This document shows positions 15,033 through 16,048 of a DNA stretch of 24,090 nucleotides, in pieces (positions within the stretch are counted from its first letter, which is position 1; every line of letters starts with the position of its first letter). The notes below the pieces were generated by a model. It was not told where the DNA came from. It made no database searches and saw only the letters and a list, made by a program, of their open reading frames with translations. The DNA is from an uncultured Erysipelotrichaceae bacterium. GTDB taxonomy: Bacteria > Bacillota_I > Bacilli_A > Erysipelotrichales > Erysipelotrichaceae. The stretch covers positions 1-24,090 of the forward strand of contig CAZHIG010000002.1 in the NCBI GenBank assembly GCA_964532705.1. Reading direction: 5' to 3'. The translations under genes and the position numbers were made by a program.

Positions 15033-15569
15033 TTAATGATGAATTTGATAGGCTTTATACCTTTCATCTAGGATCTCAACTTCCTCAATCACAAGCTTTG
15101 AATTCATGACATTAAGATATTTAACACTGTCTTTGAATTCTTTTTGTGTAAGCGGAAATAAGGAATCCTTTTGATAAGCTTGTTGGTTGATGACCAATTC
15201 ATCTCGCATCAGATGACCCTCTTTTATCCAAGGAAACGAATTAATCCAAACCAACATATCTAAATAGTCTTTTGAGTGGTGTTGATAAAATAGTGCAATC
15301 CATAGAATGAAAAGAATAAGCATTCCAAACTCTACCTTCATTTCAAAACTTGAGATAAATACCCATCCAAGATTAATCAGTATGAATAAGATTCTACGAC
15401 TCATTTGAACATAACGACGATTAAGCAAAACTTTTAAAGCGAAGTAAAAGATAGGAATGCTTATAAAATTCTCTAATGAGATTCTGATTGTAAGCATCAA
15501 AAATCCATATATACATGTAAAGATTAAATCTTGGTATTTTAGACCTTTCAAGAACACTTTTTTTCTCAT
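15033..15569 (-). CDS. Hypothetical membrane protein: about four N-terminal TM helices and an ~80-aa soluble C-terminal part
   Basis: 178-aa ORF that fills the gap between tsaC and the XRE gene. Hydrophobic stretches at about residues 14-32, 34-49, 60-75 and 79-95. No family recognised. Confidence 0.8.
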   Translation of the reverse strand: MRKKVFLKGLKYQDLIFTCIYGFLMLTIRISLENFISIPIFYFALKVLLNRRYVQMSRRILFILINLGWVFISSFEMKVEFGMLILFILWIALFYQHHSKDYLDMLVWINSFPWIKEGHLMRDELVINQQAYQKDSLFPLTQKEFKDSVKYLNVMNSKLVIEEVEILDERYKAYQIHH

Positions 15570-15594
15570 TTTTTACCAGTATAGCCAGTAAAAT
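15570..15594. promoter_or_regulatory. Candidate XRE operator 1 (imperfect palindrome)
   Basis: TTTTTACCAG-TATAG-CCAGTAAAAT. Same left half-site as operator 2; overlaps the -10 of the membrane-protein gene and abuts its ATG. Confidence 0.65.
15578..15583 (-). promoter_or_regulatory. -10 box of the membrane-protein gene, near-leaderless
   Basis: TATACT lies 8 nt before ATG 15569. No SD and no good -35. Confidence 0.5.
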
Positions 15595-15597
15595 AGA

Positions 15598-15622
15598 TTT
15601 TTACCAGTCAGGCTGGTAAAAA
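15598..15622. promoter_or_regulatory. Candidate XRE operator 2 (perfect palindrome)
   Basis: TTTTTACCAG-TCAGG-CTGGTAAAAA, a perfect 10-5-10 inverted repeat starting 28 bp after operator 1. Confidence 0.72.
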
Positions 15623-15646
15623 CACAGACTTTTACACGCATCGTCG

Positions 15647-15652
15647 TATAAT
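15647..15652 (+). promoter_or_regulatory. -10 box of the XRE gene, near-leaderless
   Basis: Perfect TATAAT lies 9 nt before ATG 15662. No SD; the -35 position (ACAGAC) is poor. Confidence 0.6.
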
Positions 15653-15661
15653 TTTTAAACA

Positions 15662-16048
15662 ATGACTAAAACACGATTTTCATATCGTCTTCAAAACCTG
15701 CGTGAACGTAAAGGCTATACTCAAGCAGAACTAGCAAAGATTTTAGGCTGTTCTCAACAAACAGTGTCAAATTGGGAGTCCGGAGATTTAAGCCCAAATT
15801 TTGACTATGTGCTAAAAATCGTAGATTTTTTCAAAATATCGATTTCTGAATTATCCCCAGAAAACAGCGTCAGTGAGTCTGAACAAAGTTACCATACAAA
15901 AAAAGATCTCTTTGAGACCTTCTTTACTTCTAAATTTTTTCTAGAATTCTATCCCAAACTTACAATAAAACAAGCTCTTAAACTCAGTAAATTGGTTCAA
16001 GCTTATATCGATTTATTAGAAGACAACATCACAGTTGACGAACAATAA
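15662..16048 (+). CDS. XRE/Cro-C1 family helix-turn-helix transcriptional regulator
   Basis: RLQNLRERKGYTQAELAKILGCSQQTVSNWESGDLSP is a typical HTH_3 domain. Short C-terminal helical region; no S24 peptidase domain. Confidence 0.92.
   Translation: MTKTRFSYRLQNLRERKGYTQAELAKILGCSQQTVSNWESGDLSPNFDYVLKIVDFFKISISELSPENSVSESEQSYHTKKDLFETFFTSKFFLEFYPKLTIKQALKLSKLVQAYIDLLEDNITVDEQ
15898..15919 (-). terminator. Candidate terminator of prfA-prmC located inside the antisense XRE gene
   Basis: Minus-strand RNA GGUCUC-AAA-GAGAUC-U7 (6-bp stem with one G-U pair), about 110 nt past the prmC stop. Confidence 0.4.

Follow-up and report, generated by a model that had tools for sequence, protein, structure and literature searches.

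An XRE-type gene and an orphan partner gene occupy the slot between prmC and tsaC

The window (the whole stretch of 24,090 nucleotides that was analyzed) carries on its minus strand a run of housekeeping genes comprising tdk, prfA, prmC, tsaC, rpiB, glyA, and upp. The slot between prmC and tsaC holds two further open reading frames (ORFs), a plus-strand one of 128 amino acids (aa) and a minus-strand one of 178 aa, with 92 bp between them. An earlier note on this DNA had placed both ORFs in the prmC-tsaC run, and direct reading confirmed its coordinates and description. The XRE-family regulator gene extends from 15662 to 16048 on the plus strand, its 3' end overlapping convergently with that of prmC by 20 bp, and the partner gene lies at 15033 to 15569 on the minus strand. 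The organism's habitats are bioreactor, groundwater, wastewater, and freshwater metagenomes, and the organisms compared here are uncultured Erysipelotrichaceae, all of them MAGs. The order tdk-prfA-prmC, pair, tsaC-rpiB-glyA-upp was seen at all loci compared, and genes of integrase, phage, restriction-modification (R-M), or toxin families were absent both from the window and from about 20 orthologous loci. This agrees with the earlier remark that neither an integrase nor an att site is present.

The 128-aa protein was assigned to the XRE family by a match to Pfam HTH_3 (PF01381) over residues 10 to 64 (60.8 bits against a cut-off of 23, E=1.3e-16). It consists of this N-terminal HTH domain and a conserved C-terminal extension of about 60 aa. 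In the alignment of its orthologues (A5), the SQQT..WE recognition helix is kept, and the HTH is followed by the motif V.E...Y.t..D...S..F. The dN/dS ratio was about 0.11 for the XRE gene and about 0.06 for prmC. The HTH itself is ordinary, being closest to the ImmR, CylR2, 434, and P22 repressors. Searches of Pfam and NCBIfam matched HTH families only and left the C-terminal 60 aa unmatched; no S24 peptidase or autocleavage domain was found in the 128 aa, as the earlier note had it, and an autocleavable repressor of the lambda cI/LexA type was ruled out for this reason.

The partner could not be assigned to any family. It matched nothing in Pfam, NCBIfam, or PADLOC, and none of the 24 members of its family had a Pfam match at a meaningful E value. 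Relatives were found in only 3 clusters among 1.84 billion representatives, and a profile search returned 13 proteins; the orphan family comprises fewer than about 30 known sequences. The dN/dS ratio of the partner gene, 0.3 to 0.45, marks it as a genuine coding gene on which purifying selection is relaxed. It is the fastest-evolving gene of the locus, and its alleles are mosaic between strains: between the window and locus L013, dS is near 0 for XRE and prmC and 0.35 for the partner, and between the window and locus L011, dS is 0.07 for the C-terminal part of the partner and 0.85 for XRE.

A single-sequence AF2 model of the partner was unusable (pLDDT 48.8), and we took instead the model based on a 24-row alignment (pLDDT 83.8), in which 4 transmembrane (TM) helices precede two further helices, each of them followed by a hairpin. 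The protein is thus predicted to have 4 TM helices and an alpha/beta domain of about 80 aa (residues 98 to 178). According to the positive-inside rule, both termini would lie inside, and the C-terminal domain would be cytosolic. This domain, with the motif FPLxxxE, is the conserved core of the protein, and E144 is invariant across 24 homologues; the number of TM helices in the N-terminal part differs between lineages, from 4 to a single weak one to none. Foldseek gave no PDB match with E<=0.001 for the model, shape searches of AFDB clusters and the Atlas matched residues 94 to 178 to unnamed proteins only, a wide VIA-align search returned only generic four-helix-bundle matches to residues 1 to 99, and the best score of an Atlas feature search (0.80) was at chance level.

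Two palindromes with a fixed spacing cover the putative partner promoter

The 92-bp gap contains two copies of the pattern TTTACCAG-N5-CTGGTAAA, one perfect and one with 2 mismatches. The imperfect copy (weak site, candidate operator 1) lies at 15570 to 15594, overlaps the -10 of the partner gene, and abuts its start codon; its 21-nt core (15572 to 15592) has 2 mismatches among 16 specified positions. The perfect copy (strong site, candidate operator 2), at 15598 to 15622 with its core at 15600 to 15620, consists of perfect 10-nt arms around a 5-nt spacer (10+5+10) and covers the -35 position of the partner gene. The start-to-start distance between the two palindromes is 28 bp. When the window was scanned for the pattern with at most 3 mismatches, exactly 2 sites were found against 0.11 expected, and none of 100 shuffles of the window reached 2 or more sites. 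The two palindromes reported in the earlier note, 28 bp apart, were thus borne out.

Direct reading suggests promoters for both genes. The putative -10 of the partner gene (TATACT, 15578 to 15583, minus strand) lies 8 nt before the ATG, inside the weak site, and a 17-nt spacer from this hexamer places the -35 within the strong site. At the orthologous loci, a -10-like hexamer is likewise found 6 to 9 nt ahead of the partner ATG. For the XRE gene, the putative -10 (TATAAT, 15647 to 15652, plus strand) lies 9 nt before the ATG, and the -35 is poor (ACAGAC, 15624 to 15629), beginning 1 bp past the end of the strong site at 15622. The earlier note had drawn the same geometry, with operator 1 on the -10 and start of the membrane gene and operator 2 on its -35 position, ending just upstream of the poor XRE -35, and both parts hold by direct reading.

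No Shine-Dalgarno sequence was found upstream of either gene. The XRE TATAAT and its surroundings are invariant in alignment A1 and in locus L020, and the hexamer is present in all congeneric intergenic regions; in some congeners, a leader of about 25 nt that includes a Shine-Dalgarno sequence comes after it. In the lineage of the window, the hexamer is followed by 9 nt only. Because the TATAAT is kept in every orthologous intergenic region and lies this close to the ATG here, it is probably the real XRE -10, and a leaderless XRE mRNA is plausible. The partner mRNA may also be leaderless, given the position of its -10 and the lack of a Shine-Dalgarno sequence, which makes the leaderless layout proposed earlier for both genes a plausible one. 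One 472-nt contig spans positions 15263 to 15734, across the intergenic region; the run from which it comes is taken to be RNA by guess only, and DNA may have been carried over. Such contig-level RNA-labelled data give neither strand, ends, nor transcript level.

The earlier note had also raised transcriptional readthrough from the partner gene into tsaC. This was upheld insofar as our scan found no terminator-like site between the partner stop (15033) and the -10 of tsaC. However, tsaC appears by direct reading to have an extended -10 of its own (TGATAGAAT, 15000 to 15008, minus strand), 7 nt before its ATG at 14992. Readthrough is therefore possible but not required.

The control region is better conserved than the genes around it

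We compared the window with six syntenic loci from other metagenomes, whose partners are 69 to 98% identical. The mean identity was 95% for the 92-bp region, 91% for prmC and tsaC, 88% for XRE, and 83% for the partner gene, and the flanking genes had diverged among these loci to a dS of 0.5 to 0.85. Between the window and L011, for example, the intergenic region differs by 6.5%, with a dS of about 0.85 for XRE and prmC. The intergenic changes are few and cluster in the 7 nt between the sites. In L017 and L018, a palindrome arm carries a change that was left uncompensated. Furthermore, at L020, where XRE is 52% and the partner 39% identical to those of the window, the strong site is still perfect, with a different 5-nt spacer, and the weak site, its 28-bp distance from the strong one, and the -10 region are kept as well. 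Operator conservation beside XRE homologues, proposed earlier as a check, was thus found for both sites and their spacing in the six loci and in L020. This comparative evidence supports the view that the palindromes are functional operators tied to the XRE.

A second site pair precedes a gene for a putative surface protein

In the 1.2-Mb assembly, sites with 0 to 2 mismatches occur at two loci only, each of them a 28-bp pair. One is the XRE locus; the other lies on contig C95 and consists of one perfect site and one with 2 mismatches. Sites with 3 to 4 mismatches were as frequent in the genome as those of a reversed-pattern control. The regulon scan suggested in the earlier note was therefore productive as far as the XRE locus and the C95 pair are concerned, but it gave no further sites above the control rate.

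The gene downstream of the C95 pair encodes a protein of 480 aa that combines a signal peptide with a GLUG motif and a Listeria-Bacteroides repeat. At its C terminus, an IPETG motif is accompanied by a hydrophobic stretch and by a basic tail, and by these features the protein is a predicted sortase-anchored surface protein. The sites are about 95 to 120 bp upstream of the best -10 of this gene (TATAAT, 25 nt before the ATG).

A 48%-identical orthologue of the surface protein, the sole close homologue with upstream DNA, is encoded at locus L096; this locus and one of the syntenic XRE loci were recovered from a single sample. There, the module of weak and strong site is present twice, in a 155-bp duplication, and its orientation relative to the surface gene differs between C95 and L096. 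Two further candidates, P0019/L097 and P0018/L098, were set aside as an unrelated Flg_new protein or as lacking upstream DNA. The six modules (those of 3 XRE intergenic regions, the C95 module, and the 2 in L096) come from four kinds of locus and align in register, with invariant arms (A7). The high similarity of the modules, spacers included, could partly reflect recent duplication or gene conversion and not independent constraint.

The earlier note had viewed the cassette as a stand-alone module. This did not hold, as the same operator pair precedes a surface-protein gene both here and in a related lineage. In the congener G225, a GLUG/LPDTG surface-protein gene directly adjoins XRE. We also searched the complete genomes of the congeners G034 and G110, each with its own palindrome, and found it solely in the XRE intergenic region, with no second target; as far as tested, the surface-protein link is therefore lineage specific and not genus wide. 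Finally, scanning the family for single operators with at most 1 mismatch gave single matches in 22 of the 400 genomes and no pairs. These single matches were discarded as background because their rate was similar to that of the reversed-pattern control. Two pattern scans of JGI metagenome contigs, a set that may lack this genome and its near relatives, gave no match to the operator pair.

XRE and partner are gained and lost together, and the operator type changes with the XRE lineage

A single-protein search found XRE orthologues (31 to 37% identity, 121 to 139 aa) in 12 of the 20 congeneric species genomes, each beside prmC. The partner profile gave exactly one match in each of these 12 genomes and in a single genome from a second genus; in all 13, the partner was adjacent to XRE and divergent from it. 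Neither gene was found in the remaining 8 congeners, and the profile had no match in the other 387 family genomes searched. As the profile was built from these very sequences, the presences are partly circular; this does not apply to the one-to-one adjacency or to the absences. Four near-complete congeners that lack the pair have either rpiB immediately after prmC or another ORF, of 111 aa, and then tsaC. We conclude from this pattern of presence and absence that the slot is variable and that the pair is an accessory module in it whose two genes are gained and lost together. The co-occurrence that the earlier note had proposed as a check was thereby found, and the pair is no one-off insertion: it is kept vertically, and co-gained or co-lost, in one uncultured Erysipelotrichaceae genus.

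The congeneric intergenic regions, next to XREs of 31 to 37% identity, contain half-sites of the GTTGTAT/ATACAAC type. These are arranged as an abutting palindrome in G034 and G110, as a palindrome with a 5-nt spacer in G225, and as three direct repeats in G281, and nearly every occurrence within each 3.3-kb locus sits in the intergenic region. The recognition-helix region also differs, reading C-SQQT-V/I-S-N/S-WE in the lineage of the window and Y/F-S/T-QQT-I-x-K-WE in the other lineages, and the genome encodes only one other HTH_3 relative at E<=0.01. Because operator type and recognition helix both change by lineage and only one other such relative exists, the adjacent XRE is the natural candidate for the protein that binds the sites.

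A model for the XRE regulon and its alternatives

We consider it probable that the XRE protein acts as a repressor on the pair of weak and strong sites as two dimers, shuts off the partner promoter, and also controls the surface-protein gene. In this model, a lineage-specific XRE repressor would bind the 21-bp palindromes TTTACCAG-N5-CTGGTAAA as two cooperating dimers, 28 bp apart. The dimers would cover the -10 and -35 of the partner gene and thereby repress it, and the XRE's own promoter, with its perfect -10 and a poor -35 just outside the strong site, would be left free or modulated. The same site pair would put the gene for the sortase-anchored GLUG/Listeria-Bacteroides-repeat protein under the same XRE. 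Repression of the partner gene is the natural reading because the operators cover the core promoter of the divergent gene, as the earlier note had proposed. The partner itself would be a regulated product, membrane tethered and with a conserved small cytosolic domain, and, more speculatively, it may feed back on the XRE.

As to what the partner does, it may be no more than an effector under XRE control, such as an envelope or surface-related membrane protein that works together with the anchored GLUG protein, with the signal reaching the XRE from elsewhere. We hold this possibility tentatively. The operators on the core promoter of the partner, the presence of the surface protein in the same putative regulon, and the fast evolution and mosaic alleles, which are typical of envelope-exposed or conflict-related genes, are all consistent with it. 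However, a membrane function cannot be the conserved one, because some orthologues have one weak TM helix or none, and the extracellular loops are just a few residues long. Alternatively, the two proteins may form a double-negative switch in which XRE represses the partner and the partner inactivates XRE, its cytosolic domain binding the C-terminal extension of XRE and titrating it at the membrane, so that expression of the surface protein would be bistable or signal responsive. The strict joint gain and loss of the two genes and their constant adjacency would fit such a switch, as would a cytosolic domain that is conserved next to a variable membrane anchor (4 TM, about 1 TM, none) and the conserved non-HTH extension of XRE. 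There is precedent both for the pairing of an XRE protein with a multi-TM partner that induction requires (CylR1/CylR2; PMC3709268) and for loops in which a repressor is titrated (SinR/SlrR; PMC3917956, PMC10134886). Yet the partner has no similarity to SinI, SlrR, or CylR1, and a regulator and the target dedicated to it would be expected to co-occur just as much; we regard the switch as rather doubtful. Unlikely, too, is that the orphan partner is a membrane-tethered anti-repressor representing a new domain family and forms with XRE a minimal two-protein, phosphorelay-free switch, in which XRE would repress the anti-repressor gene and the anti-repressor would sequester XRE, for the on/off display of a sortase-anchored adhesin in uncultured environmental Erysipelotrichaceae. 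If it were, the anchor in the membrane would serve as an input module that is optional and can be exchanged, with 4 TM helices, 1, or none by lineage.

We consider two further explanations highly improbable. The palindromes might be RNA or DNA hairpins, serving as a weak bidirectional terminator or insulator between prmC or antisense-XRE transcription and the partner gene. Indeed, the strong palindrome could form a weak minus-strand hairpin with a T-rich tail (-11.4 kcal/mol, z=-3.65), and a terminator consensus scan marked it as terminator-like on that strand, but its stem has just 3 to 4 G-C pairs, and it is the sequence of the arms that is conserved, not pairing alone, as seen from the uncompensated arm change in L017 and L018. 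A weaker second copy at a fixed 28 bp in every instance and the same sequence upstream of an unrelated gene, in either orientation, are not what hairpins would call for, and the direct repeats found at the same place in a congener cannot form hairpins and thus argue against a hairpin-only function. The pair might also be the remnant of a mobile element, such as a prophage cI/cro-type switch, an R-M controller with C-boxes, or a type II toxin-antitoxin system with a membrane toxin. The similarity of the HTH to the ImmR, CylR2, 434, and P22 repressors, weak PADLOC matches to "control protein" (E about 0.006), and the variability of the slot from prmC to tsaC/rpiB among congeners would fit such an origin. 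Against it stand the lack of integrase, phage, R-M, and toxin-family genes in the window and in about 20 loci, the same chromosomal slot in two genera, and a partner that has no HTH, and is therefore not Cro-like, and no PADLOC, Pfam, or NCBIfam match. Each of the three forms was ruled out in turn: a prophage lysogeny module because no integrase, Cro-like, or phage genes are adjacent and the housekeeping synteny is seen at all loci, an R-M controller because the neighbors in about 20 loci are prmC, which encodes a protein methyltransferase, and tsaC, the PADLOC matches being this weak, and a type II toxin-antitoxin pair because the genes are divergent, and not co-transcribed as in such pairs, and because the partner lacks a family match.

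The favored model, repression by XRE from paired sites, makes the locus a clean and experimentally tractable putative regulon, in which one regulator would act on two targets through a defined 21-bp operator in a fixed two-site architecture. The model also links an orphan family, with no Pfam entry and fewer than about 30 sequences, to a specific regulator. If the partner modulates XRE, a new small cytosolic domain with interchangeable membrane tethering would join the few XRE antagonists; if it does not, the two are an ordinary repressor-target pair. In either case, the operator definition allows regulon prediction in related MAGs.

Comparison with described regulatory systems

Overall, we see a small, lineage-specific putative regulon whose type is familiar except for one partner, which could not be placed in a described family. 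What is new in it is the partner family, the conserved C-terminal extension of XRE, the pairing of sites at strictly 28 bp, and the connection with a sortase-anchored protein. A literature search for modules in which an XRE gene has a divergent membrane partner brought up only phage, plasmid, and genome-survey papers.

In Enterococcus faecalis, the XRE-type HTH repressor CylR2 acts on an inverted repeat in overlapping divergent promoters, and it is paired with CylR1, a small multi-TM protein required for the response to signal (PMC3709268). The HTH of the XRE protein is similar to CylR2 (E about 5e-10). However, CylR2 is a 66-aa HTH only, whereas XRE has an extra C-terminal domain. The cylR1 and cylR2 genes are co-transcribed and diverge from the toxin operon, whereas XRE and the partner diverge from each other. 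CylR1 has 3 TM helices and no cytosolic domain, unlike the partner with its 4 TM helices and cytosolic domain; the two share no sequence or profile similarity, and the target of CylR is a lantibiotic operon. As only the HTH similarity is shared, a pair of the CylR1/CylR2 type was ruled out on the grounds of the extra XRE domain, the divergent genes, and the 4-TM partner.

The arrangement also resembles OR1-OR2 of lambda and 434 and the C-boxes of R-M controllers, in that two adjacent graded sites lie in a divergent promoter region and the proximal one abuts a weak -35. It differs from these in having no third site with a shown function, no S24 domain, and no Cro-like or R-M partner. Furthermore, the centers of the sites are 28 bp apart here, and the strong site is centered near -49 of the putative XRE start instead of -42. 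Any self-activation of the lambda OR2 or C-box type, as suggested in the earlier note, would be from that site.

The Rco operators of pLS20 are farther apart and act by looping, in the context of plasmid conjugation, and the anti-repressor Rap is a soluble peptide-sensing protein. Rco is, as we propose for XRE, an XRE-family repressor of divergent promoters with two operator regions, and it is relieved by an anti-repressor (PMC3814332).

Finally, SinR of B. subtilis is, like the XRE protein in our model, a small XRE-type HTH repressor of about 110 to 130 aa with a C-terminal non-HTH extension, and it binds multiple short repeats in its target promoters and controls surface and matrix genes. 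In contrast to the SinR system, the partner is unrelated to SinI and SlrR, membrane tethered, and divergently transcribed, and the operator sequence and the fixed 28-bp pair are different. The profile of the XRE orthologues matched SinR chain 1b0n_A over positions 5 to 107 (E=7e-8), with most of the score coming from the HTH.

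Allelic and positional variation around the XRE-partner pair

The gene for the 178-aa membrane protein that lies divergent to XRE, the HTH_3 regulator gene (partner gene; window 15033-15569, minus strand), showed the greatest divergence of any gene at this locus in comparison with the syntenic loci L011, L013, L014, and L017 from other metagenomes. Its alleles are mosaic across strains, the N-terminal half grouping with L013 and L014 and the C-terminal half with L011. This pattern indicates intragenic recombination or allele exchange in the partner gene, inside flanks that are otherwise near-identical between strains.

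In species devoid of the XRE/partner pair, the prmC-tsaC slot harbored a different, co-directional ORF of 111 aa (L115 2357-2692 in the congener G194; L116 2358-2693 in G159). In the congeneric genomes G250 and G294, rpiB directly follows prmC, and tsaC is absent from the locus. In the window, tsaC appears to possess an extended -10 of its own (TGATAGAAT; 15000-15008, minus strand), located 7 nt 5' of the ATG at 14992, and the GTG at 15016 that opens the longer tsaC ORF is probably not the real start.

On the other side of the module, the convergent coding regions of XRE and prmC overlap by 20 bp (window 16029-16048). We found no terminator-like site between the two genes at this overlap, and transcription of prfA-prmC would therefore cross the XRE gene antisense. 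This overlap is missing from the congeners G034 and G110, where the stop codons of XRE and prmC are immediately adjacent. In G225 and G347, a gene encoding a large GLUG-repeat and Listeria-Bacteroides-repeat protein with an LPDTG motif, a TM segment, and a basic tail (L048 3-1439 and L050) immediately adjoins the XRE orthologue in convergent orientation, between XRE and the expected position of prmC.

Operator modules and surface-protein genes

Additional half-site-like sequences were found next to the XRE -35 position (TTTTACAC; window 15630-15637) and downstream of the second operator pair of the genome, on contig C95 (TTTCTACCAG; L095 2617-2626). Both could be low-affinity third sites; TTTTACAC is retained just loosely in the more distant locus L020. 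Upstream of the surface-protein gene orthologous to that of C95, a 155-bp tandem duplication (L096 284-552) holds the weak and strong operator module along with a hairpin (ACAAGAACATGTTCTTGT) that precedes a T-run.

The two genes 5' of the C95 operator pair and surface-protein gene (L095 156-1148 and 1182-2408) look defence-related. One is HNH-nuclease-like, with matches to the Cas9-HNH region (E=2.6e-10, PADLOC); the other encodes MrcB_N and NOV_C domains (E=3e-30 and 2e-16, Pfam) and matches PDC-S36 (E=1e-30) as well as being PD-T4-1-like (PADLOC). A strong hairpin terminator (-14 kcal/mol; L095 ~2440-2475) lies 3' of both genes.
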